Below are positions 32,601 to 62,300 of a stretch of DNA of 64,000 bases, piece after piece; position 1 is the stretch's first letter, and every line of letters begins with the position of its first letter. The stretch is from Flectonema sp. DT1601 (Eukaryota). The stretch covers positions 496,001-560,000 of the forward strand of contig OZ025781.1 in the NCBI GenBank assembly GCA_964019425.1, written 5' to 3'. The notes under the pieces were generated by a model. It saw only the letters and a program-made list of their open reading frames with translations. It was not told the origin of the DNA and did not search any database. The position numbers and the translations under genes were made by a program.

Positions 32601-32840
32601 TTTGTGTGATAGGATTCTTCTGCGTTCAACGAAATATCAGGTTGGTCTGAATGTTTTTAATACTTCATTACTTCGAGTACGGATCTGGAAGAGAACAATC
32701 TCATCTTTTTTATCGAACGGTAAACTCGAATCCCTTTTGGGAGAAAAAAAGAAAAAAAAGAAAAAAAGTAAAAAAAATTCTAGCTAAACCAACATTGCGA
32801 ATACTTCCTAACTTCATTGCATTCTTATTTCTTTTTCTTC

Positions 32841-36670: not shown

Positions 36671-39600
36671 TAGTATTGGAAATCATTTTTTATTTCGTTG
36701 TTCAGAAATCACTTCTCTTGACCTTTCAGGTCTTTGTGGTGTCACCAGTATTGGAAGTTCTTTTTTGTCTAATTGTTCAGAAATCACTTCTGTTGACCTT
36801 TCAGGTCTTAGTAGTGTCACCAGTATTAAAAGTTCTTTTTTGTCTTATTGTTCAGAAATCACTTCTCTTGACCTTTCAGGTCTTAGTAGTGTCACCAGTA
36901 TTGGATATCAATTTTTGTCTAATTGTTCAGAAATCACTTCTGTTGCCTGTTTTTACAGGCTATGGGGCTGTATACGTATGGAAAAGGATGTAATGGAGTG
37001 GCAAGAGAAGTGGGCTCACGACGGGCAGTACGGCTACCGGAAGGGGAGATCTACGCTCGACCTCAGCTGGAAGATAGCACTAGACGTGGAACACGCAACT
37101 CTCTACGGAGAAGAGATTGCAGGAGTGACCACGGACTTCAGGAAGTGTTTCGACCTGATCCCGCACGACATCCTCCTGAAATTGGTGAAGGAATTGGGCC
37201 TCGGTGATAAGATCCTGAGAACTGTGACGGATGTCTACCGGCGACTCAGAAGGAGATTCAAGTTCCCGAGCGGCGTCGGAGAAGAATTTGCCACCACCAA
37301 CGGAATACTGCAAGGATGCCCGCTCAGCGTGGTGCTCTTCAATGCGCTGAGCTCGATACTCAGCAAAGCAATCGAGAGGGAAGCCGATGTGACGCCCGGA
37401 TCGTATGCGGACGACCTGACATTGTTTGGATCACGAACGAAGCTACAAGAAGGCGTAGAAGTCGTTGCGGAGTTCTGCACCCTGACCGGACAAGAACTCG
37501 CGCCTCAGAAATGCAAGTGGTTCTCGAACAGAGACCAGGGCCAGACCAACATCACAATGGGGGACACAACACTGGACTTCGATGACAGTGTCGATATCGT
37601 GGGATGCCACCTCAGTATGAAAGGAACCACCAAGCAGATGGGGAGGATCACGGAAGAAGTGCTCGATAGAGCGAGGCGAATCCGGTTACTTCCGCTCAGA
37701 TATCAAGCGAAGGAACAGATAGCTGCAGCTAGTGTCATGCCCAAGGCGCTCTTCGGAACGGCACTGTACGATCCCGATGCGACGCGACTCGGACTGCTGA
37801 GAAGAGCAATGGCAACGGGGATTTTCCGCAAACTTGGAGGGAAAAGAACTAAGATGTCGCACACCATGGGCCTAACGCTACTCTGCAAGGGACATTGTGT
37901 GGATCCCGCGACGTACATTAGGTACAACAGACTCCTTGCACTCACCAGAATGCTACCGAAGCTAACTGAGAGGATACGCAGGGTATGGGAACACCTGCAG
38001 GAGCACACTGAAGCGACGAGAGGACCAGTCGGCCTCGCCCTGAGTACTCTGAAGGAACTTGGATGGGAATGGTCAACTTTCTCGGTCTTCGAAGGTCCGG
38101 GAGGGATGACCGAACACGGAAGGCTGGATGCGGGGCGCTGGCGGCACGATGTCAGAGAGGCGTGCAGGCGTTTCACCTGGAACAAAACAATTGCGGAAAC
38201 GAGACGGGTAAACCTGAGAGGTATTGAAGCGGGCATCGACCGGAAAGAGACCCTGAAGGTCCTGAAGGAAGGAAAGGGCGACCCCTACCTGCGCGGAGTA
38301 GTGAAGCACTGCCTCCTGGACAACGTGTACACTGGCTCGATGAAGGCGGGAAACAAGAACTGCGCGCACTGCGAGGAGGTTGACGACGTAGAGAGGACGG
38401 AGACCCTCGAGCACGTGAACTGGGATTGCAGAGCTTATGACACAATACGACAGGAATATCCGCAAGTGATGCTACAAGTTCGATGCGATTGGCCCAATTG
38501 CCTGAGGCTACTCGGCATCAAGCCCGACAATGTGGAACTGCCGGCGGGGCTCACCGGAGACCTACAACGAATGTTCGCACGGATCAGGCTCCGCAGGGAC
38601 GACTACCAACAACTGGAGGAGAGACGGCTGACGGTTGTGGAATACGCTGGGAACAAGGAACCGGAAGTAGTTATGCGATACAACAACAAACTGGAAAAGT
38701 ACATGCCAGTATACACCCAATGGCCCGAAGCCCTTGGATTGACCTTGTACTTAGCGCTTGCGAGCTACCTGAGGGAACTGAAGTGGCCTCGACAGCCAGA
38801 CGGGGTCGGAGTCACCTTCCTGGAATTAGCGATCGACTTCGAAGCGTATGCGGGGGTTGACATACCGACCACAGTCCACGAAGGCCACGTAGCGAAGTGC
38901 ACCAAAGACAGAGCCGCCGGGAAGAAAGCTGACGTCATGTGTGGACTGATGCTAAGATTGAACTTGGTTCACAAGCATTTAGAAGGCGAGGAACAAAGAA
39001 CCTTTCCCGACTACTGCGTAGGAAGCAACAAAGCCTTACGTCCACTAGGAGCCCCGGTACTGAAAGGTTTGAAGAAACGACCAGCTTTTCTGATGGGAGA
39101 CGAAACAGTAGACACAATTCGGAGGACGGTCCAGGAGGCGAACGACGGAAAAGCTGACAAAATCAGATTCGGCTTCGAGACTGAGTGCAGGCACTCGAGC
39201 GAGAGGGAAGGGAGAGCGGAGAAATGGATAACCGCGGCACGACTTTTCCCATCAAAGGAAAAAGACGTACAGCTGAGGAGGGAGCTCTGCGAGCGAGGAC
39301 CGACACGCCCGCCACCCGAGGTCGTCAAGAGACCGGGCATCGCGGAGGGACAAGGAACGATGAACTCGACGTGCTACGGGCACTTCAAGAAGAAATGCAA
39401 TAGTTGTCGACGGGCCGGAAACACCATCTACCAGTGCTGCCACAACCATCACACTCTGGGGGATGAAGATGGACAAATACCGATATGGGACTTTTGCAGC
39501 AAGCACAAGCTTACTCCATGTGCAGTCTGCATAGTGATCGGCAGAGGATCTGAGCAATGTTGCAGAAACAGCCACCACCGATGCCGTCACCACGAGATGG

Positions 39601-39836
39601 CTCCCTGCAACGACTGCAAGCGGAATCCGGATCCGGAACAACGGACTGCCACGAAATGCTGCAACAAAAAGCATCACGGGCCAATTATAAGGACGTTGAC
39701 GAGGAGGGCGAAGCAGCCGACGAAGCATGATACGCAAACCAGCACATCGCTTCTAAAATTAGGTTTCACCAAACAAATGAAACCGAAAGCAGAGGAAACC
39801 CCGGAAAGGGAACCACAGGACAAGGGGTTAACTTAG
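36153..39836 (+). CDS. Chimeric ORF: ubiquitin-like domain + 25-aa LRRs fused in frame to 5'-deleted retrotransposon ORF2 (RT core + Zn-binding tail)
   Basis: Open 1227-codon frame. MQVFV..Ubl and 4 full LRRs are followed from ~36952 by YRLWG..QYGY..DFRKCFD..GILQGCPLS..YADD, identical to the full element. Confidence 0.8.
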   Translation: MQVFVTCPDLGFPAVSVTVGADSVVSDVLMEAAGEWDVDAEEVELLFAGDVLCESERLADHGVGGDSELEMRKKLIRIFGKNWFVDDRKREMLLLWIRDHNTEDLYLDTPTFLEDGCLTVDKRLLPSDAKRISFRHSNSNSTVISQVTSIGDDFLYDCSEITSLDLSSISSVTSIGNHFLFRCSEITSLDLSGLCGVTSIGSSFLSNCSEITSVDLSGLSSVTSIKSSFLSYCSEITSLDLSGLSSVTSIGYQFLSNCSEITSVACFYRLWGCIRMEKDVMEWQEKWAHDGQYGYRKGRSTLDLSWKIALDVEHATLYGEEIAGVTTDFRKCFDLIPHDILLKLVKELGLGDKILRTVTDVYRRLRRRFKFPSGVGEEFATTNGILQGCPLSVVLFNALSSILSKAIEREADVTPGSYADDLTLFGSRTKLQEGVEVVAEFCTLTGQELAPQKCKWFSNRDQGQTNITMGDTTLDFDDSVDIVGCHLSMKGTTKQMGRITEEVLDRARRIRLLPLRYQAKEQIAAASVMPKALFGTALYDPDATRLGLLRRAMATGIFRKLGGKRTKMSHTMGLTLLCKGHCVDPATYIRYNRLLALTRMLPKLTERIRRVWEHLQEHTEATRGPVGLALSTLKELGWEWSTFSVFEGPGGMTEHGRLDAGRWRHDVREACRRFTWNKTIAETRRVNLRGIEAGIDRKETLKVLKEGKGDPYLRGVVKHCLLDNVYTGSMKAGNKNCAHCEEVDDVERTETLEHVNWDCRAYDTIRQEYPQVMLQVRCDWPNCLRLLGIKPDNVELPAGLTGDLQRMFARIRLRRDDYQQLEERRLTVVEYAGNKEPEVVMRYNNKLEKYMPVYTQWPEALGLTLYLALASYLRELKWPRQPDGVGVTFLELAIDFEAYAGVDIPTTVHEGHVAKCTKDRAAGKKADVMCGLMLRLNLVHKHLEGEEQRTFPDYCVGSNKALRPLGAPVLKGLKKRPAFLMGDETVDTIRRTVQEANDGKADKIRFGFETECRHSSEREGRAEKWITAARLFPSKEKDVQLRRELCERGPTRPPPEVVKRPGIAEGQGTMNSTCYGHFKKKCNSCRRAGNTIYQCCHNHHTLGDEDGQIPIWDFCSKHKLTPCAVCIVIGRGSEQCCRNSHHRCRHHEMAPCNDCKRNPDPEQRTATKCCNKKHHGPIIRTLTRRAKQPTKHDTQTSTSLLKLGFTKQMKPKAEETPEREPQDKGLT

Positions 39837-39909
39837 GTTGGCCGAACCAGTGCCTCGTCATCTCACCGTGCTAGCAAGCCTGAATGACAGCACTCAAAAT
39901 GGTACATAT
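36952..39909 (+). mobile_element. Non-LTR retrotransposon copy A (5' 4.8 kb missing)
   Basis: Identical to 48620-51577. Lacks the ribozyme, ORF1 and the endonuclease. Confidence 0.92.
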
Positions 39910-40834: not shown

Positions 40835-43830
40835 ATGTAAAGTGTTGAATTGATTATTGGTTGTCATGTATTTTATATTTTTAATGTTTTGTTGTCAATA
40901 AAACGTGGTATCAACTTTTACCAAGTGACGAGACCTCGGAATCTATGATTCTCCTCGCGTCTCATCACTTCTCTTCCGATGATATTATTCTGCCAAGTTA
41001 TCTTTTTTTCCCTGAGCGTTTAGTATTACTGTTTGCGATTATACAAAAATCTACGTCTGTTTTCTGAGTAATCTTTTTTTTTGTTCCGACGAAGTCAGAG
41101 AAGAAACTATTCAGATTGAAAGTCGATATTTCTTATGGTCATGATTAATTTTCACCATGCGACAGGATTTTATCTGTGTTCAACGAAATATAAGGCTGAT
41201 CTGAATGGTTTTTTTGTTCTTATTTTGTGTCAAACCCCCGTCCTTGGATCTGACAGGTATTTTTCAGTTGAGTACTTTGATATTAATTTAATTTCAATAT
41301 CAAAATTCCATTTTTGGTAACGTGCCGCTAACAATGAATGAAGAGGGAGAAAAGCTTCTGTTTGGTTGGGTCAACCAACTGAACGTTTCTCCGCCGATAT
41401 CGGGACGGAAATTATTTACAAGATATTCGTAAAATGTATCAAGCGAAAGTTATTTTGTAGTGTTCATTCTTTTATCAGACTTTCAAGCCTTTCCCCGTTT
41501 TCAATAATAAATCTTAATCCCACCCGCCATTCCTCGTAGTGCCGATCCTCCCCAAGAGAAGATCGGCACATTAATGTTCATGAAGCAGATACTCTAAGGC
41601 AGACGTCTACTCGTCGTCAAGGGTAGACCGCCAAGTTGACGACCCTATATGTATATGATTACCGAGTGAATTGTTTTCTATCCTTCATCATCATCTTTCT
41701 TTCATCAGGTGCAAAAAGAATGCAATAGTTGATTACCGAGTACAACAAAGTTTTTATATTTATCACTCTAATTTACTAACTCAGTAGATGTAAATTCATG
41801 TAGCGTTGGTGCATCAAAGTAGTTGAGAATTTGAATCGAAACTGCCTCGAAGATTCTGTTTTTAAGTTGTCAAAGTTTCACCCCAACCTTCGGATTTAAT
41901 AAAAGAGCTGTTTTATTATTTTTAATATAAGCTAACTCATTTGTTTGAAAAAAATGATTTCCAATTAATGTCTTTGCTGAAAAAACCCGTCGATGCCACC
42001 ACCCCGACATTATTTGTTAGGATTATACAGAGCCCCCTCATGTTTTCTAACTGAATTCTGGATAACACTACCATAATTTATGTAAAGTGAGTACTCCGCT
42101 ATTAGTGTTGCTACGAACTAACAATATGGGTAGGCCATCAAATTCTGATGGATAGTTTAGGGGGGGGAGTAGGGGGGGGGTACAAGCATCGAATTTACGG
42201 AGATTTTGGGCACTTTCGGTTTTTTTCCGGAGAACAAGTTTTTTGGGCACCCAAACTATGAAAACTGCAACATATACCCCAAAAATGGGGATTGCGATCC
42301 AAAGAAACAGTTCTTCGGCACTTTAGAGCAAGTCTTTGAAAAATCTCAAAAAGTGTGGACCGTGTGGGTACCTGAGGGGGGTGAAAACAAGGGGTGTGTT
42401 AGGAGGGCTCACAAAAATTACAAGTAATTCCGTGCATTGAGCAATCCATAACCAGGGTTTCCCTCTGAGTTGAGTGGGGAATGAAATGGGAACCCAAGTT
42501 TTATTTTTATCGACCTGATTTGAACCTTAATAATATGCTCCACCAGACCGGGCTTGTTAATTCCCCCATGTCCGATGTTTAGGCTACTGGCCTTCTCTTG
42601 AGCATCCCATGTGCTCAGCTTTTGAAATTCGGCTCGAAGCTGTGCTTCTTTCTGTACAAGATAGACAGAGGACCAATCCTTGGATACAGATGGCAGATTA
42701 GTATTAGACCTTGCTGTCTAGAGGTCTTCCCTGTGAGGACGGGGTGGTACGTTCAGCCCCTGTAGCGCCTCCTGTTGTGCTTGTTCTTGCCAATTTGAAG
42801 AGGGTCGGTGGTCCTGCGTTGATGTGGTAGCCTTTGGAAGTCCGTGTACCTCTGGAATATGTTGTACGTTATCAGTAGAGTAGCATTCACGCCACTGGTT
42901 CCATCAGTTGACCAAGAACTATCAACAACACTGAATAACCTCCCCATCCCTTGAGGGGTGCAGGATGACAACGAACGCCACGGTTGTTAGCTTCATCCCA
43001 CGAACACGACGGTACCAGAGGAAGTATCATGCTGCAGCAATTTGACGGAGGGTGAGGAGGAAGCTGCTGCTTCAAGAAGTCAGGTCACCGACAGATCACC
43101 TGTGAATCCATCAAGTCGGACTGTCCTTCGAGATACAGTTGGTGACTTCGACCCGCTTCTCTTCTGTCTGCGCACCTGCGACAGCTTCAACTATGTCACT
43201 CACTCAGGACTTAGTTAGATCTCTCTGCGCCGATCCCTTCTTGCCGCAATATCTGCAGTGTAGTTACGACTCCAAGACTCTAGGAGTATGTCCCCCTCGT
43301 TTGGGTACAGTTGCAAGCGGATGTGTCTTCCGTACTTCTTCGTATGCCGCATGTACTGAAGTGTCTTGTATGCCCTGCTGGTGAGTATGGTTGGGTCTTG
43401 AGTGATGCCTTGAACGGCTTTTTGGACGGGGCATGTTGCCCTATGTCGCTGTTGCTATCTATGGCACTGCTATTTGATGCACTACCACTACAGCTGTCTT
43501 CAGGCTTATCCCTGTTTGGGGTACAGACGTGGCGCTTTGTCTATTCTGTGAGCCTTCTGTGATCACGATTCAGATACTGGACGTTTTTGGACCCCTTTCT
43601 CACGCGTATCTTGCTTCTGACTGTCCAAGTGCTGTTGAGTGACTTCAGGGATGCCTCGGGAGGTGTTTTCATGCACTCCGGGATCAATGCTCTCTTCCGC
43701 AGAATGACTTTGTGAGCTGCCCTGCAGAACGTCGTTTTCCGCTGCGTTATCCTGCCTCTTGACCTTTCAGGTCTTAGTAGTGTCACAAGTATTGGAAATC
43801 ATTTTTTTGTCTGAGTGTTCAGAAATCACT

Positions 43831-46767
43831 TGGGATCACGACACCTGCCTCCTCGCGGCGGTCCCGGACGACTTCGATAGGGGTCGACAAGACGGTGTCA
43901 AACGCAAGGGATGCGAACAACATCAACACCAACCACCACATCAAGAGCATCCGAACACTGGATGTTTCTTATCCAACAAAGAAAGAAACAGGCTGGCCCA
44001 TGCCTTGAATGGCAATGGTGGAACAAGGAAGGACAGCAGAGACCGACGCCCGCGGGACGACACTCGCGACAGGGACGAGGACCGCACGGACAAGGAAGAA
44101 CGCCGGCTGGCGAAACTCGAGAAGGAAAAACTCGAGTCGCTAGACGAAATCGAGGAAGAGAAGCAGCGGCTGGGGCAACAGAGAATGGCCATGGAGCAGC
44201 ACCACCACCAGAAGGAAACCAACCTTCAAGGACAAGAAAAACAGTTGGAACAGCAACGCCAACACCAACAACAAGAACTGCAAAGTCAGTACCACCAACA
44301 ACAGCAGCAACTGCAAAGCCACCATCAGCTGAAGGAAACGGAAAGTCTCCAGAAGGAGCAAAACCTACAGGCTCAACTCAAAGAGCAACATCAGCACCAA
44401 CAGAAGGAATTGGAGAAGCAATACCGCCAACGACAACAGCAACTGGAAAGCCAGCAGCAGAAGAAGGACGCCGAGTCTGAACAGCAAACGCATCTGACTC
44501 GGTCACAACTACAGAAGGAAAAGGAATCCTTCCAGACGGAGAAGGAACGGCTCCACCTCCAGCTGGATCAGCAGCTAAAGAACGAGAAGGAGCACCTCCA
44601 CCGAAAGCTCAAGGAGCAGATTGGACAAGAAAAAGTCCAACAACAACAAAAGCTCCAACAGAAGGAAGACGAGATCCAACGGCGTGAGGAAGAGGTGAAC
44701 CGAGGACAGCAGCAACTACACCAACAGCAGCAACAACTAGAGCAACAGCAACAGCAATCGCAACATCAGCAACTGGAACTACAACAACAACGGCAACAAC
44801 AACAACAACAGCATCAACAACTGGAACTGGAACAACAACAACTACAACAGCAACTGCAACTGCAACAACATCGACAACCGCAACAACAACCGCAACAGCA
44901 ACCCGTACACTACATGCAACATCAACCGTATGCAACGTACGACACCTACGCCCAGCAGCAGCAGCAGTCTTCCCACTACGAAGGACTACAACAGGAACTG
45001 AAGCGCGAGAGAGAGGAGAAAAGCGAACTACGCGAGATGCTCCGAACTCTCCAACAACAACTGGACGGATTGAGAGAAGAACTCAAGGCCCAACATGCTG
45101 AGGCGAAGAGGCAGCAGGAAACGGCGGGACGGGAAGCGAGAGAGATGCAAGAACGTTTCTTGCTAGAACTCGAAGCGGAACGGGTCCAGATCAGAGGACT
45201 CAACTCGCTGAGAGAAGAGGAAGAGGAACATCAGATGGACACCACCCCTGATCAGGAAGCAAACACGGAAGTGAAGCAAACGCCACCGGTGAAGCTGCCC
45301 CAAGACGGTATGAGGGAGCTGGACGCCTCACGCAAGAAGCTGATGAAAGAAATCAATGAAGGGCAGGTAGCCGGACGATCGGCCATCCAAGAGCAGATGG
45401 TCCGAGAGGCCGGGAGACTGGCGCAGACTCAGAAGAGCTGGGAGAACGCAGCACGCAAGGAGCGATCCAGGGTGGATAACCTCTCGCTGGCACCGGAGTA
45501 TTGGCCAGAGGGAATGGCAATTACGAAGGAGCAGTACGACGCCGGTACAAAGGGAGTACACCTCACCACCAGAGAGGAGGCAAGGAAGAGGATGTCGGGA
45601 ACACCTCCGGGAGCCTGGGAAACGTTATCCCTAGTAACCCTGGAACCACCATCAGACACGGCGCAGAAAGTACAGGTAGTACTTAAGGAGACGACGAGCG
45701 ACGGCGAGAAGAGAATTCTCAAGCAGCTCTGGATGACAACACTGGGAAGAGTGGTTGTACCATCCGGAACAGACGTCGTGCGGACGGAAAGCACGAGGGA
45801 GATGGTTGTCCGAGTGGACAAAAAATGGTCCGGAGAGAAGAGATGGTCGGAAGTGAAGCGCTCCCCGATCAGGGCAACGGAAGAGTTGAGGAAGATGCAG
45901 GGGTATGTCGATACGTACAACCCGCGGATCGGAGACCAGAGCGTCACGGTGATGCTCAGGGTGAAGGTAGCCGAAGTGAAGAACTTCCTCCGAGAATCGG
46001 GGAAGGACGGCGTCTTCACCAAGGAAAAGGATCCGAGAGAAGAACGAGCAGTGAAGGCGGCGGTCATTTGGCTACCGAAGGACGAGACACTCGGAATCGC
46101 TCGGGACAAGGCTGTAGAAGTCGATGGAGGGCTGGGACTTGTGGTAAACGAACACGGACTCGGGCTTCGAGTGACCAGCTGGCAGGAAACGGCGGCGAGG
46201 GAGAAACTGCACCTGCCGGCTAAGCTACCGGAAACAAAGATCACGGGTATCCCGATCGGCACAACCACCGACGAAGCGATCAAGTGGCTGATCACGAAGG
46301 AAGGCTGGGAAGTGAGGAAGACGAAGGAAGGCGTACGGAACGGCATGCGATGGATGGTCGTCCGCGGTCCGGTGAGAACGCAGGAAACCATCACGGTGGA
46401 TGGCGTCCTGTGCATGGTGGAGGCTGGGAAACAGAAGGTGGAAGTCGACCCGAAACGGAAGGAGACCAAACGCCCGAATGCGACACCGACAAAACCGGAG
46501 AAAAGGCGTGACCCGACGGAGGGAACGGGAGGAAAGTGGTACACTCGATTGGAGTTCATCGAGTTTCATGGGAAGAAGAAGGGACAACGCCTATGGTTAG
46601 AAGCCAGCAACCCAACACCAACTACGACGGCACCTACGAAGGCAGCGACCGCAACGACAACAGCGAAAAAGGAGCCCAAGTCGACAAAAAAGAAGGAGAA
46701 CAGCTCAGTGGACGAGAGATTGGACCGACTGGAACGTCTACTGATGGCGTTCATGGAACGGAATTGA
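43831..46767 (+). CDS. Retrotransposon ORF1 (Gln-rich coiled coil, RRM-like C-terminal region); true start unclear
   Basis: Frame is open from the insertion junction to TGA at 46765-46767. First in-frame ATG is at 44185. The frame is preserved across indels in copy C. Confidence 0.85.
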   Translation, partial: WDHDTCLLAAVPDDFDRGRQDGVKRKGCEQHQHQPPHQEHPNTGCFLSNKERNRLAHALNGNGGTRKDSRDRRPRDDTRDRDEDRTDKEERRLAKLEKEKLESLDEIEEEKQRLGQQRMAMEQHHHQKETNLQGQEKQLEQQRQHQQQELQSQYHQQQQQLQSHHQLKETESLQKEQNLQAQLKEQHQHQQKELEKQYRQRQQQLESQQQKKDAESEQQTHLTRSQLQKEKESFQTEKERLHLQLDQQLKNEKEHLHRKLKEQIGQEKVQQQQKLQQKEDEIQRREEEVNRGQQQLHQQQQQLEQQQQQSQHQQLELQQQRQQQQQQHQQLELEQQQLQQQLQLQQHRQPQQQPQQQPVHYMQHQPYATYDTYAQQQQQSSHYEGLQQELKREREEKSELREMLRTLQQQLDGLREELKAQHAEAKRQQETAGREAREMQERFLLELEAERVQIRGLNSLREEEEEHQMDTTPDQEANTEVKQTPPVKLPQDGMRELDASRKKLMKEINEGQVAGRSAIQEQMVREAGRLAQTQKSWENAARKERSRVDNLSLAPEYWPEGMAITKEQYDAGTKGVHLTTREEARKRMSGTPPGAWETLSLVTLEPPSDTAQKVQVVLKETTSDGEKRILKQLWMTTLGRVVVPSGTDVVRTESTREMVVRVDKKWSGEKRWSEVKRSPIRATEELRKMQGYVDTYNPRIGDQSVTVMLRVKVAEVKNFLRESGKDGVFTKEKDPREERAVKAAVIWLPKDETLGIARDKAVEVDGGLGLVVNEHGLGLRVTSWQETAAREKLHLPAKLPETKITGIPIGTTTDEAIKWLITKEGWEVRKTKEGVRNGMRWMVVRGPVRTQETITVDGVLCMVEAGKQKVEVDPKRKETKRPNATPTKPEKRRDPTEGTGGKWYTRLEFIEFHGKKKGQRLWLEASNPTPTTTAPTKAATATTTAKKEPKSTKKKENSSVDERLDRLERLLMAFMERN
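43832..43899 (+). ncRNA. Predicted HDV-like self-cleaving ribozyme at the element 5' end (copy B)
   Basis: P1 GGGAUC/GGUCCC; P2 GACACC/GGUGUC; P3-L3 GCC-UCCUCGC-GGC; P1.1 GG; P4 CGACUUC-GAUA-GGGGUCG; J4/2 ACAA with candidate catalytic C43888. Folded by eye. Confidence 0.88.
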
Positions 46768-49700
46768 CCGGCGGAGGACGGAAGGAACTGGGCGGAGACA
46801 CGGAGACGTCTCCTGCTACAAGCTGGCGACGTTGAGAGGAACCCCGGACCGAGACCACGAATCGATGGGCTCACCGTGGGAACAATCAATGTCACCACAC
46901 TAGAAGGAAAAATAGATGCCATCACAGATCTGAACCTAGATCTGATAGCTCTACAGGAAACTTCTCTGACGGGCCCACAGCAACGCCAGATGAAAAAACA
47001 GCTCGGTGAGAGAGGATGGGAAGCGACGTTCGGGTTAGAGTGCAAATTACTAACCGATGGGCAAAAGACGTGGACGGCGGCGGGAGGCGTGGCCATCTTG
47101 ACGCGCACTGGTACACCGGTGAGAAGGATAAAACACGATCGGCTCGACAACACAGGACGATTCGTACACGCGGGAGTGTCGTACGGAAATGGCAAGGTAC
47201 TGCACGTATTCTCGTTCTACGGAGACGTACGTTCGGCGGTCTACACGGAAGAGTTGATTGCGGAGATGCTCGTGGAAGCAGCAGCTCTGGGTGATGTTCC
47301 CGTATTTATAGCGGGGGACTTCAACGTCGAAACAACGGAATCGCCGGCGCTTCTGTCGGCTTTCGCACACGGACTCTGGATAGATGCCGCCGTCTCGATG
47401 GGAAACATGACACCGACAAGCGAAGCGGGAAAAGGACTTCGTAGAATCGATGCTATTCTGATGAACCGCGGGGCGGCGACAGCAATCTCGAATGACACAA
47501 CGATTCATGTGCATAAGAGTGAGCTGATCCCGACACACAAGCCGGTCATCATTAGAAAGCTCAGCATCTCACGCTACAACGAGAAGGCTCCTAGGCTGAT
47601 AGTACCGAAACAGTTGGATACCTCCGAGACAACGGACCCGAGTGAGGGGAAGGCCGAAAGGCAACTCCACTGGACGCGAGCTGTAGCGACGGAAGATCCT
47701 GACAAGATGCTGGAGGCGCTTGGAGAGATCATCGAAAGATACCTTCTGACGGGAAAGCTGGAGATAAGTAACCCAGCCAAGTACAAGGGACGCGGGAAGA
47801 AGCGTGAGCCTGTGATGTGGACGAACGCGGCGAAACAAGACGGGAGAGGAGCGACGTGCAGGGAAACGCGGAGAAGACTGCAGAAGATACGTGTTCTGGA
47901 GGAAGTGATGAAAATCACAAAGCAACGCGATGGTCCGACGGTGCCGTCCCACGAAGTAATGAAACTCTGGAAAAAATTACGAAAACTCGATCCGACGACG
48001 GGATCCGAAATACCACAGACGGAGGAGCTTCGGATACTACTACAACAAGCGAGACAGGAGCAAGCGATAGAAAGCAAGAAGCTCCGAACTGAACGCATCC
48101 GCATGTGGAAACGGAATGTTGTCGACAATTGGAATGACGACCGCACGAAGGTTTTCCAGTGGATCAGGAACGTCGAGCAATCGAAGACTGTTCTGATGGA
48201 AAAGGCAGATGGAAGCTGGACGGCCAACTGCTCCGAGATGGATGAGGCCATGCACGCGGCATGGGACCCCATACTCAAAAAGTACTTATCAGACCCGGAA
48301 CCAGACTGGATGAAGTTCGAAGAACGGTACAGCAACTACATCGAGGAACACCCGATGCGATGCGAAGATATCACCGGGGAGGACGTTGCAAAAGCCCTCA
48401 GAAGGACTAGCTCGCGCAAAGCAGCTGGGGTAGACGGCTTCAGGATATCGGAGCTCAAGTCGCTACCGGAGGACATGATTCAGATGATAGCGGAATTCTA
48501 CAACATAGTGGAGAGAACACACTGGCCGGAAGCACTTCTCACGGCACTGGTGTCGGCCATACCCAAAGGGGCAGGGACGAAACCACTGGAGCAGAGACCC
48601 ATTACGGTGACATCCGCACTTTACAGGCTATGGGGCTGTATACGTATGGAAAAGGATGTAATGGAGTGGCAAGAGAAGTGGGCTCACGACGGGCAGTACG
48701 GCTACCGGAAGGGGAGATCTACGCTCGACCTCAGCTGGAAGATAGCACTAGACGTGGAACACGCAACTCTCTACGGAGAAGAGATTGCAGGAGTGACCAC
48801 GGACTTCAGGAAGTGTTTCGACCTGATCCCGCACGACATCCTCCTGAAATTGGTGAAGGAATTGGGCCTCGGTGATAAGATCCTGAGAACTGTGACGGAT
48901 GTCTACCGGCGACTCAGAAGGAGATTCAAGTTCCCGAGCGGCGTCGGAGAAGAATTTGCCACCACCAACGGAATACTGCAAGGATGCCCGCTCAGCGTGG
49001 TGCTCTTCAATGCGCTGAGCTCGATACTCAGCAAAGCAATCGAGAGGGAAGCCGATGTGACGCCCGGATCGTATGCGGACGACCTGACATTGTTTGGATC
49101 ACGAACGAAGCTACAAGAAGGCGTAGAAGTCGTTGCGGAGTTCTGCACCCTGACCGGACAAGAACTCGCGCCTCAGAAATGCAAGTGGTTCTCGAACAGA
49201 GACCAGGGCCAGACCAACATCACAATGGGGGACACAACACTGGACTTCGATGACAGTGTCGATATCGTGGGATGCCACCTCAGTATGAAAGGAACCACCA
49301 AGCAGATGGGGAGGATCACGGAAGAAGTGCTCGATAGAGCGAGGCGAATCCGGTTACTTCCGCTCAGATATCAAGCGAAGGAACAGATAGCTGCAGCTAG
49401 TGTCATGCCCAAGGCGCTCTTCGGAACGGCACTGTACGATCCCGATGCGACGCGACTCGGACTGCTGAGAAGAGCAATGGCAACGGGGATTTTCCGCAAA
49501 CTTGGAGGGAAAAGAACTAAGATGTCGCACACCATGGGCCTAACGCTACTCTGCAAGGGACATTGTGTGGATCCCGCGACGTACATTAGGTACAACAGAC
49601 TCCTTGCACTCACCAGAATGCTACCGAAGCTAACTGAGAGGATACGCAGGGTATGGGAACACCTGCAGGAGCACACTGAAGCGACGAGAGGACCAGTCGG

Positions 49701-51504
49701 CCTCGCCCTGAGTACTCTGAAGGAACTTGGATGGGAATGGTCAACTTTCTCGGTCTTCGAAGGTCCGGGAGGGATGACCGAACACGGAAGGCTGGATGCG
49801 GGGCGCTGGCGGCACGATGTCAGAGAGGCGTGCAGGCGTTTCACCTGGAACAAAACAATTGCGGAAACGAGACGGGTAAACCTGAGAGGTATTGAAGCGG
49901 GCATCGACCGGAAAGAGACCCTGAAGGTCCTGAAGGAAGGAAAGGGCGACCCCTACCTGCGCGGAGTAGTGAAGCACTGCCTCCTGGACAACGTGTACAC
50001 TGGCTCGATGAAGGCGGGAAACAAGAACTGCGCGCACTGCGAGGAGGTTGACGACGTAGAGAGGACGGAGACCCTCGAGCACGTGAACTGGGATTGCAGA
50101 GCTTATGACACAATACGACAGGAATATCCGCAAGTGATGCTACAAGTTCGATGCGATTGGCCCAATTGCCTGAGGCTACTCGGCATCAAGCCCGACAATG
50201 TGGAACTGCCGGCGGGGCTCACCGGAGACCTACAACGAATGTTCGCACGGATCAGGCTCCGCAGGGACGACTACCAACAACTGGAGGAGAGACGGCTGAC
50301 GGTTGTGGAATACGCTGGGAACAAGGAACCGGAAGTAGTTATGCGATACAACAACAAACTGGAAAAGTACATGCCAGTATACACCCAATGGCCCGAAGCC
50401 CTTGGATTGACCTTGTACTTAGCGCTTGCGAGCTACCTGAGGGAACTGAAGTGGCCTCGACAGCCAGACGGGGTCGGAGTCACCTTCCTGGAATTAGCGA
50501 TCGACTTCGAAGCGTATGCGGGGGTTGACATACCGACCACAGTCCACGAAGGCCACGTAGCGAAGTGCACCAAAGACAGAGCCGCCGGGAAGAAAGCTGA
50601 CGTCATGTGTGGACTGATGCTAAGATTGAACTTGGTTCACAAGCATTTAGAAGGCGAGGAACAAAGAACCTTTCCCGACTACTGCGTAGGAAGCAACAAA
50701 GCCTTACGTCCACTAGGAGCCCCGGTACTGAAAGGTTTGAAGAAACGACCAGCTTTTCTGATGGGAGACGAAACAGTAGACACAATTCGGAGGACGGTCC
50801 AGGAGGCGAACGACGGAAAAGCTGACAAAATCAGATTCGGCTTCGAGACTGAGTGCAGGCACTCGAGCGAGAGGGAAGGGAGAGCGGAGAAATGGATAAC
50901 CGCGGCACGACTTTTCCCATCAAAGGAAAAAGACGTACAGCTGAGGAGGGAGCTCTGCGAGCGAGGACCGACACGCCCGCCACCCGAGGTCGTCAAGAGA
51001 CCGGGCATCGCGGAGGGACAAGGAACGATGAACTCGACGTGCTACGGGCACTTCAAGAAGAAATGCAATAGTTGTCGACGGGCCGGAAACACCATCTACC
51101 AGTGCTGCCACAACCATCACACTCTGGGGGATGAAGATGGACAAATACCGATATGGGACTTTTGCAGCAAGCACAAGCTTACTCCATGTGCAGTCTGCAT
51201 AGTGATCGGCAGAGGATCTGAGCAATGTTGCAGAAACAGCCACCACCGATGCCGTCACCACGAGATGGCTCCCTGCAACGACTGCAAGCGGAATCCGGAT
51301 CCGGAACAACGGACTGCCACGAAATGCTGCAACAAAAAGCATCACGGGCCAATTATAAGGACGTTGACGAGGAGGGCGAAGCAGCCGACGAAGCATGATA
51401 CGCAAACCAGCACATCGCTTCTAAAATTAGGTTTCACCAAACAAATGAAACCGAAAGCAGAGGAAACCCCGGAAAGGGAACCACAGGACAAGGGGTTAAC
51501 TTAG
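46768..51504 (+). CDS. Retrotransposon ORF2: 2A peptide + APE endonuclease + reverse transcriptase + CCHC knuckle + triple Cys/His repeat
   Basis: APE motifs GTINV, IALQET, GGVAIL, GDFNV and RIDAIL; RT motifs RPITV, DFRKCFD, GILQGCPLS and YADD; C-x2-C...H-x4-C. Same frame as ORF1, no ATG before the APE domain, no RNase H recognised. Confidence 0.93.
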   Translation, partial: PAEDGRNWAETRRRLLLQAGDVERNPGPRPRIDGLTVGTINVTTLEGKIDAITDLNLDLIALQETSLTGPQQRQMKKQLGERGWEATFGLECKLLTDGQKTWTAAGGVAILTRTGTPVRRIKHDRLDNTGRFVHAGVSYGNGKVLHVFSFYGDVRSAVYTEELIAEMLVEAAALGDVPVFIAGDFNVETTESPALLSAFAHGLWIDAAVSMGNMTPTSEAGKGLRRIDAILMNRGAATAISNDTTIHVHKSELIPTHKPVIIRKLSISRYNEKAPRLIVPKQLDTSETTDPSEGKAERQLHWTRAVATEDPDKMLEALGEIIERYLLTGKLEISNPAKYKGRGKKREPVMWTNAAKQDGRGATCRETRRRLQKIRVLEEVMKITKQRDGPTVPSHEVMKLWKKLRKLDPTTGSEIPQTEELRILLQQARQEQAIESKKLRTERIRMWKRNVVDNWNDDRTKVFQWIRNVEQSKTVLMEKADGSWTANCSEMDEAMHAAWDPILKKYLSDPEPDWMKFEERYSNYIEEHPMRCEDITGEDVAKALRRTSSRKAAGVDGFRISELKSLPEDMIQMIAEFYNIVERTHWPEALLTALVSAIPKGAGTKPLEQRPITVTSALYRLWGCIRMEKDVMEWQEKWAHDGQYGYRKGRSTLDLSWKIALDVEHATLYGEEIAGVTTDFRKCFDLIPHDILLKLVKELGLGDKILRTVTDVYRRLRRRFKFPSGVGEEFATTNGILQGCPLSVVLFNALSSILSKAIEREADVTPGSYADDLTLFGSRTKLQEGVEVVAEFCTLTGQELAPQKCKWFSNRDQGQTNITMGDTTLDFDDSVDIVGCHLSMKGTTKQMGRITEEVLDRARRIRLLPLRYQAKEQIAAASVMPKALFGTALYDPDATRLGLLRRAMATGIFRKLGGKRTKMSHTMGLTLLCKGHCVDPATYIRYNRLLALTRMLPKLTERIRRVWEHLQEHTEATRGPVGLALSTLKELGWEWSTFSVFEGPGGMTEHGRLDAGRWRHDVREACRRFTWNKTIAETRRVNLRGIEAGIDRKETLKVLKEGKGDPYLRGVVKHCLLDNVYTGSMKAGNKNCAHCEEVDDVERTETLEHVNWDCRAYDTIRQEYPQVMLQVRCDWPNCLRLLGIKPDNVELPAGLTGDLQRMFARIRLRRDDYQQLEERRLTVVEYAGNKEPEVVMRYNNKLEKYMPVYTQWPEALGLTLYLALASYLRELKWPRQPDGVGVTFLELAIDFEAYAGVDIPTTVHEGHVAKCTKDRAAGKKADVMCGLMLRLNLVHKHLEGEEQRTFPDYCVGSNKALRPLGAPVLKGLKKRPAFLMGDETVDTIRRTVQEANDGKADKIRFGFETECRHSSEREGRAEKWITAARLFPSKEKDVQLRRELCERGPTRPPPEVVKRPGIAEGQGTMNSTCYGHFKKKCNSCRRAGNTIYQCCHNHHTLGDEDGQIPIWDFCSKHKLTPCAVCIVIGRGSEQCCRNSHHRCRHHEMAPCNDCKRNPDPEQRTATKCCNKKHHGPIIRTLTRRAKQPTKHDTQTSTSLLKLGFTKQMKPKAEETPEREPQDKGLT
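46789..46851 (+). other. 2A (StopGo) ribosome-skipping peptide WAETRRRLLLQAGDVERNPG|P (copy B)
   Basis: Exact D[VI]ExNPGP consensus at 46828-46851, preceded by LLxQAG, immediately before APE motif I. Confidence 0.92.
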
Positions 51505-54500
51505 GTTGGCCGAACCAGTGCCTCGTCATCTCACCGTGCTAGCAAGCCTGAATGACAGCACTCAAAATGGTACATATAATTGTTCACAAATCACTTCTCT
51601 TGACCTTTCAGGTCTTAGTAGTGTCACCAGTATTGAAAGTTTTTTTTTGTCTAATTGTTCACAAATCACTTCTCTTGACCTTTCAGGTATTAGTAGTGTC
51701 ACCAGTATTGGAGTTTGTTTTTTGTCTAAGTGTTCAGAAATCACTTCTCTTGACCTTTCAGGTCTTAGTAGTGTCACCATTATTGAAAGTTCTTTTTTGT
51801 CTTATTGTTCTGAAATCACTTCTCTTGACCTTTCAGGTCTTAGTAGTGTCACTAGTATTGGAAATCATTTTTTATTTCGTTTTTCAGAAATCACTTCTCT
51901 TGACCTTTCAGGTCTTTGTGGTGTCACCAGTATTGGAAGTTCTTTTTTGTCTAATTGTTCACAAATCACTTCTCTTGACCTTTCAGGTCTTAGTAGTGTC
52001 ACCAGTATTGAAAGTTTTTTTTTGTCTAAGTGTTCACAAATCACTTCTCTTGACCTTTCAGGTCTTAGTAGTGTCACCAGTATTGAAAGTTTTTTTTTGT
52101 CTAAGTGTTCACAAATCACTTCTCTTGACCTTTCAGGTCTTAGTAGTGTCACCAGTATTGAAAGTTTTTTTTTGTCTAAGTGTTCACAAATCACTTCTCT
52201 TGACCTTTCAGGTCTTAGTAGTGTCACCAGTATTGGAGATTGTTTTTTGTCTGAGTGTTCAGAAATCACTTCTCTTGACCTTAGTAGTGTCAACTCTTGG
52301 TCTTAGTAGTGTCACCAGTATTGAAAGTTCTTTTTTGTCTAATTGTTCAAAAATCACTTCTGTTGACCTTTCAGGTCTTAGTGATGTTAAAGAAATTGGT
52401 GATGCCTTCTTCGATAATTGCAGTGCCCTGGAATCTGTTCAGCTGCCTGAAAATAATGGCGCTCTCTTTGAACCGTCTGTGAAAGCTGCGATTAATCATT
52501 AAATGTAAAGTGTTGAATTGATTATTGGTTGTCATGTATTTTATATTTTTAATGTTTTGTTGTCAATAAAACGTGGTATCAACTTTTACCAAGTGACGAG
52601 ACCTCGGAATCTATGATTCTCCTCGCGTCTCATCACTTCTCTTCCGATGATATTATTCTGCCAAGTTATCTTTTTTTCCCTGAGCGTTTAGTATTACTGT
52701 TTGCGATTATACAAAAATCTACGTCTGTTTTCTGAGTAATCTTTTTTTTTGTTCCGACGAAGTCAGAGAAGAAACTATTCAGATTGAAAGTCGATATTTC
52801 TTATGGTCATGATTAATTTTCACCATGCGACAGGATTTTATCTGTGTTCAACGAAATATAAGGCTGATCTGAATGGTTTTTTTGTTCTTATTTTGTGTCA
52901 AACCCCCGTCCTTGGATCTGACAGGTATTTTTCAGTTGAGTACTTTGATATTAATTTAATTTCAATATCAAAATTCCATTTTTGGTAACGTGCCGCTAAC
53001 AATGAATGAAGAGGGAGAAAAGCTTCTGTTTGGTTGGGTCAACCAACTGAACGTTTCTCCGCCGATATCGGGACGGAAATTATTTACAAGATATTCGTAA
53101 AATGTATCAAGCGAAAGTTATTTTGTAGTGTTCATTCTTTTATCAGACTTTCAAGCCTTTCCCCGTTTTCAATAATAAATCTTAATCCCACCCGCCATTC
53201 CTCGTAGTGCCGATCCTCCCCAAGAGAAGATCGGCACATTAATGTTCATGAAGCAGATACTCTAAGGCAGACGTCTACTCGTCGTCAAGGGTAGACCGCC
53301 AAGTTGACGACCCTATATGTATATGATTACCGAGTGAATTGTTTTCTATCCTTCATCATCATCTTTCTTTCATCAGGTGCAAAAAGAATGCAATAGTTGA
53401 TTACCGAGTACAACAAAGTTTTTATATTTATCACTCTAATTTACTAACTCAGTAGATGTAAATTCATGTAGCGTTGGTGCATCAAAGTAGTTGAGAATTT
53501 GAATCGAAACTGCCTCGAAGATTCTGTTTTTAAGTTGTCAAAGTTTCACCCCAACCTTCGGATTTAATAAAAGAGCTGTTTTATTATTTTTAATATAAGC
53601 TAACTCATTTGTTTGAAAAAAATGATTTCCAATTAATGTCTTTGCTGAAAAAACCCGTCGATGCCACCACCCCGACATTATTTGTTAGGATTATACAGAG
53701 CCCCCTCATGTTTTCTAACTGAATTCTGGATAACACTACCATAATTTATGTAAAGTGAGTACTCCGCTATTAGTGTTGCTACGAACTAACAATATGGGTA
53801 GGCCATCAAATTCTGATGGATAGTTTAGGGGGGGGAGTAGGGGGGGGGTACAAGCATCGAATTTACGGAGATTTTGGGCACTTTCGGTTTTTTTCCGGAG
53901 AACAAGTTTTTTGGGCACCCAAACTATGAAAACTGCAACATATACCCCAAAAATGGGGATTGCGATCCAAAGAAACAGTTCTTCGGCACTTTAGAGCAAG
54001 TCTTTGAAAAATCTCAAAAAGTGTGGACCGTGTGGGTACCTGAGGGGGGTGAAAACAAGGGGTGTGTTAGGAGGGCTCACAAAAATTACAAGTAATTCCG
54101 TGCATTGAGCAATCCATAACCAGGGTTTCCCTCTGAGTTGAGTGGGGAATGAAATGGGAACCCAAGTTTTATTTTTATCGACCTGATTTGAACCTTAATA
54201 ATATGCTCCACCAGACCGGGCTTGTTAATTCCCCCATGTCCGATGTTTAGGCTACTGGCCTTCTCTTGAGCATCCCATGTGCTCAGCTTTTGAAATTCGG
54301 CTCGAAGCTGTGCTTCTTTCTGTACAAGATAGACAGAGGACCAATCCTTGGATACAGATGGCAGATTAGTATTAGACCTTGCTGTCTAGAGGTCTTCCCT
54401 GTGAGGACGGGGTGGTACGTTCAGCCCCTGTAGCGCCTCCTGTTGTGCTTGTTCTTGCCAATTTGAAGAGGGTCGGTGGTCCTGCGTTGATGTGGTAGCC

Positions 54501-55424: not shown

Positions 55425-55559
55425 CGTGAGCCTCGTGGCATGGCCGAGCGAGAGCGCTGCTCTTTTTCGTGGCGTGTTCTTGAAGCGGAAACTGATACGG
55501 AAATGGTATATTAGCACACTGCGTGCACAGGGACACACTAAGGTCACCTCTTCTCATTG

Positions 55560-58500: not shown

Positions 58501-59389
58501 ACGAACTAGCAATATGGGTAGGCCATCAAATTCTGATGGATAGATTAGGGGGGGGGGGTGTGTCCTGTCGGTTCCGTATGTGAAATCTATTACAATTAAT
58601 GAAGACTTGGTTGTGGATTTAATTATTAATTTATTAGAGGATTCAGACATTCTAGTTTTTAGAGAAGAGCAAGACGGGTCATGTTATTTTATAGGAAATT
58701 ACAACTACAGAATATGTTGCACTATTCAGGAATCGAAGCTGCTTTTTCAGTTTTTCCTTATTACTTTACGATTGTTGCCGTCGTTTTGGAACGCTTCATC
58801 AATATTAATAAACCTTTTCGTCTTTCAGTAGATTCCAAAAAAAAAGGAAACAAATAAAAACAACAACAGCAATGCAAGTTTTTGTGACGTGTCCGGATTT
58901 GGGATTCCCTGCGGTGTCAGTCACGGTTGGTGCTGATTCTGTTGTGAGCGACGTGTTGACGGAAGCGGCTGGCGAGTGGGATGTCGATGCGGAGGAAGTT
59001 GTACTGTTGTTCGCTGGTGATGTCCTTTGTGAAAGTGAGCGGCTGGCAGATCATGGAGTGGGTGGAGACAGCGAGTTGGAAATGCGGAAGAAGCTGATTC
59101 GGATCTTCGGTAAAAACTGGTTTGTTGATGATAGAAAAAGGGAGATGCTGCTTCTTTGGATTAGAGACCACAATACGGAGGATTTATATCTGGACACTCC
59201 CACATTCTTGGAGGATGGTTGCCTCACTGTTGACAAAAGATTGCTTCCTTCAGATGCCAAACGGATTTCCTTCCGCCATTCAAACTCCAACAGCACGGTC
59301 ATCTCACAAGTTACTTCTATTGGAGATGACTTTTTATATGATTGTTCAGAAATCACTTCTCTTGATCTTTCAAGTATTAGTAGTGTCAC
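55560..59389. repeat. Segmental duplication, copy 2 (pairs with 32841-36670)
   Basis: Offset 22719, near-complete identity. Confidence 0.95.
56065..57081 (+). CDS. Papain-family (C1A) cysteine protease, copy 2
   Basis: Protein identical to 33346-34362. Confidence 0.95.
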   Translation: MKLSLALLSLPCLAAGLTASAEDVAHLAFDSFKSQYNKKYVSEVEEAKRYEAFKASLDRVAASGNPTHGITKFSDMTPEEFKATYLSARPLQKSSPPVAEWDGECTACKRFPELSNLKNATSFDWTTKGAVTKVKNQGQCGSCWSFGTTGDIEGTWFLAGNDLTSLSEQELVSCDKTDDGCGGGLQETAFAWVIKQGGLTTEANYPYNSGGGRVDACEEAKKKPIAASIKTWYQVSKNAGGESKIESQLPHVGPITIGINATPMQDYKGGVDNPRLCSGLQLDHAVLIVGFGTDNGVDYWKIKNSWAADWGEEGYYRIVRGHNKCGLANDAVHSVAGK

Positions 59390-62300
59390 CAGTATTGGAG
59401 TTTGTTTTTTGTCTGAGTGTTCAGAAATCACTTCTCTTGACCTTTCAGGTCTTAGTAGTGTCACTAGTATTGGAAATCATTTTTTATTTCGTTGTTCAGA
59501 AATCACTTCTCTTGACCTTTCAGGTCTTAGTAGTGTCACCAGTATTAAAAGTTCTTTTTTGTCTTATTGTTCAGAAATCACTTCTCTTGACCTTTCAGGT
59601 CTTAGTAGTGTCACCAGTATTGGATATCAATTTTTGTCTAATTGTTCAGAAATCACTTCTGTTGACCTTTCAGGTCTTAGTAGTGTCACTAGTATTGGAA
59701 ATGATTTTTTATTTCGTTGTTCAGAAATCACTTCTCTTGACCTTTCAGGTCTTAGTAGTGTCACCAGTATTAAAAGTTCTTTTTTGTCTTATTGTTCAGA
59801 AATCACTTCTCTTGACCTTTCAGGTCTTAGTAGTGTCACCAGTATTGGATATCAATTTTTGTCTAATTGTTCAGAAATCACTTCTGTTGACCTTTCAGGT
59901 CTTAGTAGTGTCACCAGTATTGGAGATTGTTTTTTGTCTTATTGTTCAGAAATCACTTGGGATCACGACACCTGCCTCCTCGCGGCGGTCCCGGACGACT
60001 TCGATAGGGGTCGACAAAACAGTGTCAAACACAAGAGATGCCAACAACATCAAAACCATCAAAACCAGCTACAACATCCAGAGCATACAAACCCTGGCTT
60101 GTCAAATAAAGAACGGAATAAACTAGCCCATGCCTTGAATGGCAATGGTGGACCAGGAAAGGACAGCAGAGACCGACGCCCGCGAGACGATACTCGCGAC
60201 AGGGACGAAAACCGTCCAAACAAGGAGGAACGTCGCATAGCGAAGCTCGAGAAAGAGAAACTCGACTCGCTAGACGAGATAGAGGAAGAGAAGCAACGAC
60301 TGGGGCAGCAGAGAATGGCCATGGAACAGCACCACCACCAGAAGGAAACCAACCTTCAAGGACAAGAAAAACAGTTGGAACAGCAACGCCAACACCAACA
60401 ACAAGAACTGCAAAGTCAGTACCACCAACAACAGCAGCAACTGCAAAGCCATCATCAGCTGAAGGAAACGGAAAGTTTCCAGAAGGAGCAAAACCTACAG
60501 GCTCAACTCAAGGAGCGACACCAGCACCAACAGAAGGAATTGGAGAAGCAATACCGCCAACAACAACAGCAACTGGAAAGCCAACAGCAGAAGAAGGACG
60601 CCGAGTCTGAACAGCAAACACATCTGACTCGGTTACAACTACAGAAGGAAAAGGAATCCTTCCAGACAGAGAAGGAACGGCTCCACCTCCAGCTGGATCA
60701 GCAGTTGAAGAACGAGAAGGAGCACCTCCACCAACAACTCCAACAGAAGGAAGACGAGGTTCGTAAAGAAAAGTTAGCAGAGAGAATAGAACTCCAACAA
60801 CTACGAGATGAACTAACTCAACAAGAACAGAACATCCAACGACGTGAGGAAGAGGTGAACCGAGGACAGCACCAACTACACCAACAACAACAACAACTAG
60901 AGCAGCAGCAACAGCAATCGCAACATCAGCAACTGGAACTACAACAACAACGGCAACAACAGCAACAGCAACAACAGCATCAACAACTGGAACTACAACA
61001 ACAACAACAACAACAGCACCAACAACAGCATCAACAACTGGAACTGGAACAACAACAACTACAACAGCAACAGCAACTGCAACAACATCGACAACCGCAA
61101 CAACAACCGCAACAGCAACCCGTACACTACATGCAACATCAACCGTATGCAACGTACGACACCTACGCCCAGCAGCAGCAGTCTTCCCACTACGAAGGGC
61201 TACAACAGGAACTGAAGCGCGAAAGAGAGGAGAAGAGCGAACTACGCGAGATGCTCCGAACTCTCCAACAACAACTGGACGGATTGAGAGAAGAACTCAA
61301 GGCCCAACATGCTGAGGCGAAGAGGCAGCAGGAAACGGCGGGACGAGAAGCGAGAGAGATGCAAGAACGTTTCTTGCTAGAACTCGAAGCGGAACGGGTC
61401 CAGATCAGAGGGCTCAACTCGCTGAGAGAAGAGGAAGAGGAACTTCAGATGGACACCACCCCTGATCAGGAAGCAAACACGGAAGTGAAGCAAACGCCAC
61501 CGGTGAAGCTGCCCCAAGACGGTATGAGGGAGCTGGACGCCTCACGCAAGAAGCTGATGAAAGAAATCAATGAAGGGCAGGTAGCCGGACGATCGGCCAT
61601 CCAAGAGCAGATGGTCCGAGAGGCCGGGAGACTGGCGCAGACTCAGAAGAGCTGGGAGAACGCAGCACGCAAGGAGCGATCCAGGGTGGATAACCTCTCG
61701 CTGGCACCGGAATACTGGCCAGAGGGAATGGCGATCACGAAGGAGCAGTACGACGCCGGTGCAAAGGGAGTACACCTCACCACCAGAGAGGAGGCAAGGA
61801 AGAGGATGTCGGGAACACCTCCGGGAGCCTGGGAAACGTTATCCCTGGTAACCCTGGAACCACCATCAAGCACGGCCCAAAAAGTACAAGTGGTACTGAA
61901 GGAGACGACGAGCGACGGCGAGAAGAGAATTCTCAAGCAGCTCTGGATGACAACACTGGGAAGAGTGGTTGTACCATCCGGAACAGACGTCGTGCGGACG
62001 GAAAGCACGAGGGAGATGGTTGTCCGAGTGGACAAAAAATGGTCCGGAGAGAAGAGATGGTCGGAAGTGAAGCGCTCCCCGTTCAGAGCAACGGAGGAAT
62101 TGAAGAAGATGCCGGGGTACGTCGATACGTACAACCCGCGGATCGGAGACCAGAGCGTGACCGTGATGCTCAGGGTGAAGGTAGCCGAAGTGAAGAACTT
62201 CCTCCGAGAATCGGGGAAGGACGGCGTCTTCACCAAGGAAAAGGATCCGAGAGAGGAACGAGCAGTGAAGGCGGCGGTCATTTGGCTACCGAAGGACGAG

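Follow-up and report, generated by a model that had tools for sequence, protein, structure and literature searches.

We describe here a non-LTR retrotransposon whose second open reading frame (ORF2) probably reaches translation by two successive recoding events: readthrough of the in-frame UGA that closes ORF1, followed by skipping at a 2A peptide placed directly ahead of the APE endonuclease. According to this leading model, a small fraction of ribosomes would read through the UGA, and the conserved 2A would then free an endonuclease-reverse transcriptase (RT) protein with Pro as its first residue. The ORF1p:ORF2p ratio would be high as a consequence, and the 2A would have been retained since the endonuclease must be detached from ORF1p. 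Copies A, B and C of the element lie in the window, that is, the whole 64-kb stretch of DNA that was analysed, with the following features.

36946..39902, + strand: copy A, 5'-truncated and beginning within the RT; another ubiquitin-like/LRR gene, with its AUG at 36153, reads into it in frame; the 3' part of copy A duplicates copy B
43708..43831, + strand: remnant of a host leucine-rich-repeat (LRR) gene 5' of copy B, broken at ~43756 by a rearrangement junction
43831..46767, + strand: ORF1 of copy B, 978 codons plus TGA; putative Q-rich coiled coil followed by predicted domains of RRM-like type
46765..46768, + strand: UGA-C stop closing ORF1 of copy B, in the same frame as ORF2
46768..46851, + strand: spacer/2A of 27 codons plus the next Pro, copy B, AUG-free
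46849..51504, + strand: ORF2 of copy B past the skip; APE endonuclease, RT (YADD), Cys/His-rich C terminus
51505..51570, + strand: 3' end of copy B, ~66 nt, without poly(A), joined to LRR repeats
58872..59958, + strand: 5' part of a host ubiquitin-like/LRR gene, including its AUG and reading in frame into ORF1 of copy C
59959..62981, + strand: ORF1 of copy C, closing with the same TGA as copy B
62982..64000, + strand: 2A and APE of copy C, continuing beyond the window edge

The frame that contains ORF1 of copy B is open from 43708 to 46767 and ends in MERN-TGA, and the ORF2 frame (46768-51504, 1578 codons) opens with CCG directly after the TGA and in the frame of ORF1. The 2A core GDVERNPG/P predicts a skip between codons 27 and 28 (46848 and 46849), and AUG is absent from every frame of the interval between the stop and this point. 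The earliest in-frame AUG of ORF2, at 46990 (codon 75), falls past the catalytic residues N41 and E64, which are invariant in 28 related APEs, so that ORF2 of copy B is left without a usable AUG. The junction of copy C (62979-63092) has the same layout, and the 656 nt around the stop are identical in both copies, an identity that was not counted as evidence of an RNA signal because ORF2 divergence is low throughout. Coordinates and frames thus bear out the earlier note on this DNA, which had reported a TGA, an in-frame 2A and no ATG before the APE domain in B as well as in C. One 6.3-kb record from sequencing run X1, carrying C-type letters, crosses the stop with no change there; it makes an assembly slip less likely but, as a possible source of the window, is no independent evidence. 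Run X2 gave seven short pieces, one of them from a related 2A that differs at 14 of 73 letters and ends short of the stop; runs X3 and X4 gave none.

By its domains and copies, the element is a multi-copy, site-specific LINE of the APE-RT type. In the ORF2 of copy B (1578 codons), Pfam places the APE endonuclease at residues 50-239 (PF03372, 28.2 bits, cut-off 24.5) and the reverse transcriptase, with its YADD motif, at residues 606-814 (PF00078, 83.5 bits). A profile built from 28 relatives matches the L1 endonuclease (E 2e-7), the match to L1 ORF2p starting at residue 2-3; a PDB search with a single APE sequence gave no match. ORF1 had no Pfam match, and Foldseek run on its model returned nothing at E<=0.001; the model (pLDDT 65) contains long helices, and its top structural match, an RRM (Z 8.2, rmsd 2.8, 70 aligned), is near background. 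The copies are dispersed and 5' truncation occurs, copy A opening inside the RT and ORF1 being joined to differing LRR paralogues. Both element ends sit in one LRR register, with flanks that proved rearranged and non-identical when checked for target-site duplications. Class A 2A peptides are defined by a GD[VI]ExNPG/P core behind a leucine-rich stretch, over 18-23 residues (PMC13405545); both core and leucine-rich stretch are present here, with 27 codons available for the 18-23 residues. Among named organisms, the diplonemid Flectonema neradi holds the relatives closest to the element, so that the host, probably a marine protist, is itself likely to be a diplonemid. Flectonema ORF1 likewise ends in RN at the aligned position. 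A metagenome scan yielded 14 loci, all of which were dropped: none had an RT motif or a 2A, and most looked like bacterial exonuclease III-like genes.

Initiation of ORF1 also appears to depend on its surroundings. The first Met of its own in copy B is codon 119 and, as ORF1 has no early AUG, ORF1p is likely a fusion to the N terminus of a host protein; from the arrangement of the genes, the start codon of ORF1 is likely supplied by the host LRR gene that the element enters in frame. In-frame fusions of ORF1 to differing LRR paralogues at the same register were found in P0031, P0037, P0042 and copy C of the window, and also in Flectonema P0036 and P0062, and this diversity of partners at one register indicates separate, site-specific insertions. 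The genes entered, in this host and in Flectonema, are of the ubiquitin-like/LRR kind; insertion keeps their frame and falls at a single register of the 75-nt LRR repeat (58872-62981 and 36153-39836 in the window).

Judged from called database proteins, through which the family copies were counted, the TGA before the 2A is a family-wide feature and no one-off lesion. Six of the eight ORF1 members in the database end at MERN, the remaining two breaking earlier. Fifteen of the 22 members of the ORF2 cluster were listed; eight of these contain the APE start, and all eight are called from codon 37 (GTG in the window). Upstream AUG starts and fusions are absent among these eight, one of which is identical to copy B. 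A full-length, 4.7-kb intact ORF2 is present in 4 of the 15 listed members, and three further full-length ORF2s differ from copy B at 24, 9 and 7 residues. No ORF1-APE fusion protein occurred among 15 matches of 867-2762 aa, among 3 matches of 238-758 aa, or in the best 150 of 444 HMMER matches to the read-through query; beyond 2762 aa, only the 50%-cluster search could have revealed a fusion. Copies B and C differ at 29 synonymous and 7 non-synonymous codons in 596 codons of ORF1, and at 4 and 1, respectively, in 339 codons of ORF2. The possibility raised in the earlier note that most copies carry a sense codon here, the stop being a shared inactivating mutation, is thus contradicted by the ORF1 copies ending in MERN and by a sister family with the same UGA.

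The junction of this sister family is represented by one defective copy, P0064, read through its protein alone. P0064, retrieved by the HMMER search, is frameshifted, and its ORF1 is 59% identical to that of the window. Read one base back, its run-on tail is compatible with 25 of the 26 residues of the window 2A, compared with 17 for the runner-up among 440 frame sets and at most 16 in 300 shuffles. The shifted protein pins down bases two and three of the native codons and thereby reveals the selection on them: second codon positions are identical to the window 2A at 18 of the 19 determinable sites and third positions at 9 of 25 (Fisher p=1e-4), which shows conservation of the 2A as a peptide rather than as RNA. 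On these counts, selection acts on the window 2A as a peptide, beginning with codon 4 past the stop (with codon 2 in the sister family). ORF1 of P0064 ends in a codon that can be either TGA or CGA, and because 22 of 22 family members end there we read it as TGA. In the junction so decoded, the base next to the TGA is C or T, and a single codon separates the TGA from the 2A, which lies in the frame of ORF1; the chance rate of the three-position stop context is 0.02. The frame is maintained between the window and the sister family despite a 2-codon difference in spacer, an agreement whose value as support is limited by its chance rate of 1-in-3. The 24 codons past the 2A of P0064 match no APE start, and no ORF2 of the sister family occurred among the 15 protein matches of 867-2762 aa. 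For sister ORF1 families (P0032-P0035 and 18 cluster members), several of which have an AUG of their own, no intact ORF2 was found; they may be non-autonomous, or their ORF2 may have been missed.

Other relatives arrange the same junction differently. P0070 is a shifted copy of a third family, with an ORF1 41% identical and the family C terminus matched at 22 of 22 positions. Its decoding forces an AUG that overlaps the UGA (AUGA) and opens the -1 frame as far as an APE start that agrees with P0002 at 22 of 33 positions; no 2A was seen between the AUGA and this APE start. Members of this third family were also found as in-frame fusions to cathepsin-like genes and to another gene (P0066, P0211, P0212; P0208, P0209, P0213, P0214). 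The Flectonema proteins P0002 and P0003 are Met-initiated and carry a Josephin-like leader of ~190 residues that closes in RGGG motifs; the Josephin-like call for P0003 has a Pfam E of 0.012, below the cut-off. P0003 keeps a nearly identical 2A and has 56% ORF2 identity to the window; in P0002 the 2A is absent. The RGGG motifs, which we take to resemble the ubiquitin C terminus, may form a self-cleavage site and may substitute for the 2A in P0002. A profile of the two Flectonema leaders found nothing in the six frames of the window. In a quick tree that omitted 15 near-identical family members, P0002 and P0003 form a clade of their own (support 99), so the leader may be a gain instead of having simply been lost from the window's element. 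We infer that the stop-2A cassette, the AUGA overlap and the Josephin-like leader may be three solutions to one need, a free APE N terminus.

Among the relatives at large, 2A-like motifs (D[VI]xx[NH]PGP) occur in 16 of 145 HMMER matches, 11-295 residues from the called start; because many of them follow short called leaders, a 2A alone is no proof of a long upstream fusion. In 27 of the 145 matches (P0077, P0086, P0090 and 24 more), a variant GEAx[NHKV]PGP, mostly directly before the APE, replaces the canonical 2A core. The Flectonema protein P0217 begins at a Met within the APE, which may reflect either the lack of an upstream AUG or a 5'-partial transcript.

Altogether, the junction is real and conserved, and probably functional. 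Conservation of the peptide from codon 4 in the window, and from codon 2 in the sister family, indicates that ribosomes are elongating in the frame of ORF1 within three codons of the stop (one in the sister family), and readthrough is favoured because it explains the joint retention of frame and 2A. The predicted skip product has a conserved Asn at position 14, where the corresponding Asn of L1 ORF2p presumably lies as well. The stop is in a leaky context, UGA-C in the window and UGA-(C/U) in the sister family; this UGA-pyrimidine context may, notwithstanding, be inherited, since the third family shares it without any need for readthrough. Contexts of the UGA-CUAG type are leakier, and none is present at the window junction. 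A hairpin had been suggested as a readthrough stimulator. The fold itself can form (GGAGAC/GTCTCC, 46791-46817, + strand, ~24 nt past the stop; z -2.17 for 136 nt, with 7 of 200 shuffles equally good), but its stimulatory role is not supported, because pairing is not conserved in the sister copy, where 2 of the 6 pairs are broken and 1 is weakened to a wobble. Rfam returned nothing at gathering level for 46300-47300. More tentatively, the group may represent a LINE clade that lives on borrowed and recoded signals, with a host AUG for ORF1 and UGA readthrough plus 2A for ORF2, the latter cassette having been swapped in evolution with an AUGA stop-start and a Josephin-like self-cleaving leader.

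The earlier claim that ORF2 is reachable only by readthrough was too strong, as AUG-independent reinitiation and splicing are alternatives. In the first of these, ribosomes would terminate at the UGA and reinitiate without AUG on the early codons, or hop over the stop, and the 2A would trim a short leader. Human L1 ORF2 translation has been described as AUG-independent, perhaps by reinitiation (PMC11485995), the overlapping AUGA of the third family indicates that coupling is native to the clade, 2As behind short leaders are common, and the gag-UGA-pol junction of Candida Tca2, taken alone, gave no readthrough in yeast (PMC2194720). We nevertheless consider this route less likely than readthrough for several reasons: (i) conservation of the peptide sets in at codon 4 past the stop, and at codon 2 in the sister family, (ii) the codons found there (CCG, GCG, GAG; CCT/CTT/TCT/TTT) are not near-cognate starts, (iii) the sole CTG would leave just 11 codons up to the skip, too few for a 2A of 18-23 residues (PMC13405545), and (iv) both 2A families retain the frame of ORF1, whereas the reinitiating third family does not.

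Removal or bypass of the UGA by RNA processing, whether by cis-splicing, possibly non-canonical, or by trans-splicing, appears improbable. Diplonemids do trans-splice, some with non-canonical introns (PMC12621601), and a GT-AG intron exists in the V-ATPase gene of the window. Against this, the region is purine-rich, with no AG in 46500-46830 that has at least 16 pyrimidines among the preceding 30 nt; a trans-spliced RNA would still require an AUG, the earliest in-frame one of which would delete N41 and E64; and a spliced RNA, once copied back, would tend to drop the stop, which the copies retain. It is just as doubtful that ORF2 is silent in these copies, an AUG-bearing leader having been lost, the elements spreading in trans and the 2A being a relic. 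The Met-initiated leaders of P0002 and P0003, the near-identical 2A of the latter and the lack of any leader trace in the window would fit such a history, but ORF2 has stayed intact over 4.7 kb in several listed members, B and C show a synonymous excess, the 2A is selected as a peptide across families, the separate clade of P0002 and P0003 allows the leader to be a gain, and no leader-bearing ORF2 of the long-contig assembly occurred among the 15 protein matches of 867-2762 aa. Stop codon recoding occurs in some euglenozoans. A host that decodes UGA as an amino acid, making ORF1-2A-ORF2 one ordinary ORF, is nonetheless barely conceivable here, since seven host ORFs (6849 codons) contain TGG 110 times and in-frame TGA 0 times, a DUF4116 gene terminates in TGA ahead of an AT-rich spacer, and ORF1 of the third family stops at UGA with ORF2 in a different frame. 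UGA readthrough followed by 2A skipping is the likeliest of these readings.

That a 2A can stand before the APE of a LINE is already well known; what appears new is its pairing with an in-frame UGA and no AUG, readthrough and skipping being devices that mostly occur apart from each other. 2As ahead of the APE were described in six LINE clades (L1Tc, Ingi, CR1, L2, Rex1 and Crack), mostly without ORF1 (Odon 2013, PMC3708506), and 2As are common among reverse-transcribing contigs (10.64898/2026.09.24.754024). The window's element resembles these LINEs in its canonical 2A immediately before the ORF2 APE, but here ORF2 has no AUG and follows a long ORF1 that ends in an in-frame UGA, ORF1 being mostly absent from those LINEs (exceptions CR1-26_BF, CR1-53_BF and CR1-1_LG; PMC3708506). 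In the Ingi/L1Tc clade there is a single ORF without ORF1 (PMC3708506), as opposed to the ORF1 of 978 codons seen here. The portions of PMC3708506 consulted describe neither an in-frame stop just 5' of the 2A nor readthrough, and those of PMC8310308, PMC10161547 and PMC12338488 hold no precedent for readthrough combined with 2A. In the largely open-access literature covered, we found no LINE for which readthrough and a subsequent 2A skip had been described. Josephin/OTU-2A-ORF2 elements have been reported, including Dualen/RandI in Haematococcus (PMC13405545). These, together with Flectonema P0002 and P0003, share the 2A before the APE (P0003) but have a Met-initiated protease-like leader that is absent from the window's element. 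Dualen/RandI elements carry a second, restriction-like endonuclease.

Parallels in layout exist outside LINEs. In Moloney MLV gag-UAG-pol (PMC5009743) and Candida Tca2 gag-UGA-pol (PMC2194720), structural and enzyme ORFs lie in one frame with a single stop between them. Both are LTR elements with a 3' pseudoknot, whereas the window's element is a LINE with a 2A instead of a protease and no conserved 3' structure found. In LTR elements of the MLV/Tca2 type, the products are processed by a protease. In cardioviruses, serial recoding events also set the structural-to-enzyme ratio (PMC5009743), but StopGo skipping comes first and a -1 frameshift second, whereas here the stop comes first and the skip second. 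SART1, with its UAAUG coupling, and human L1 are likewise bicistronic LINE RNAs in which ORF2 relies on ORF1 translation (PMC3708506, PMC5972666, PMC11485995). They use an AUG and no 2A, while the window's element has the 2A and no AUG; the AUGA overlap of the third family resembles the UAAUG coupling of SART1.

How ORF2 is produced from a two-ORF LINE RNA and what role LINE 2As play are both open questions (PMC3708506, PMC11485995, PMC13405545). The window's element unites them in a 90-nt cassette, and its relatives supply three natural alternatives. If the model is true, it would provide a clear function for a cellular 2A, the detachment of ORF2p from a readthrough fusion, and two serial recoding events in one eukaryotic mobile element. 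Many annotated ORF2s with a 2A and a short or missing leader are candidates for re-examination with this layout in mind.

The genes of the window are eukaryotic, intron-poor and of standard code, and no tRNA gene was found in its 64 kb. Near-perfect segmental duplications, which include cathepsin and LRR genes, link 36952-43756 with 48620-55424 (1 difference in 6805 nt) and 32838-36948 with 55557-59668 (99.4% over 4112 nt), and are either recent duplications or an assembly artefact. A long secreted-type protein, encoded at 6841-12264, is CAP-like in its N-terminal part and has numerous EGF-like repeats that are rich in cysteine and recur with a period of 297 nt (domains named by eye). In the V-ATPase a subunit gene, the short GT-AG intron at ~2658-2727 contains a TGA that divides the two ORFs of the gene.
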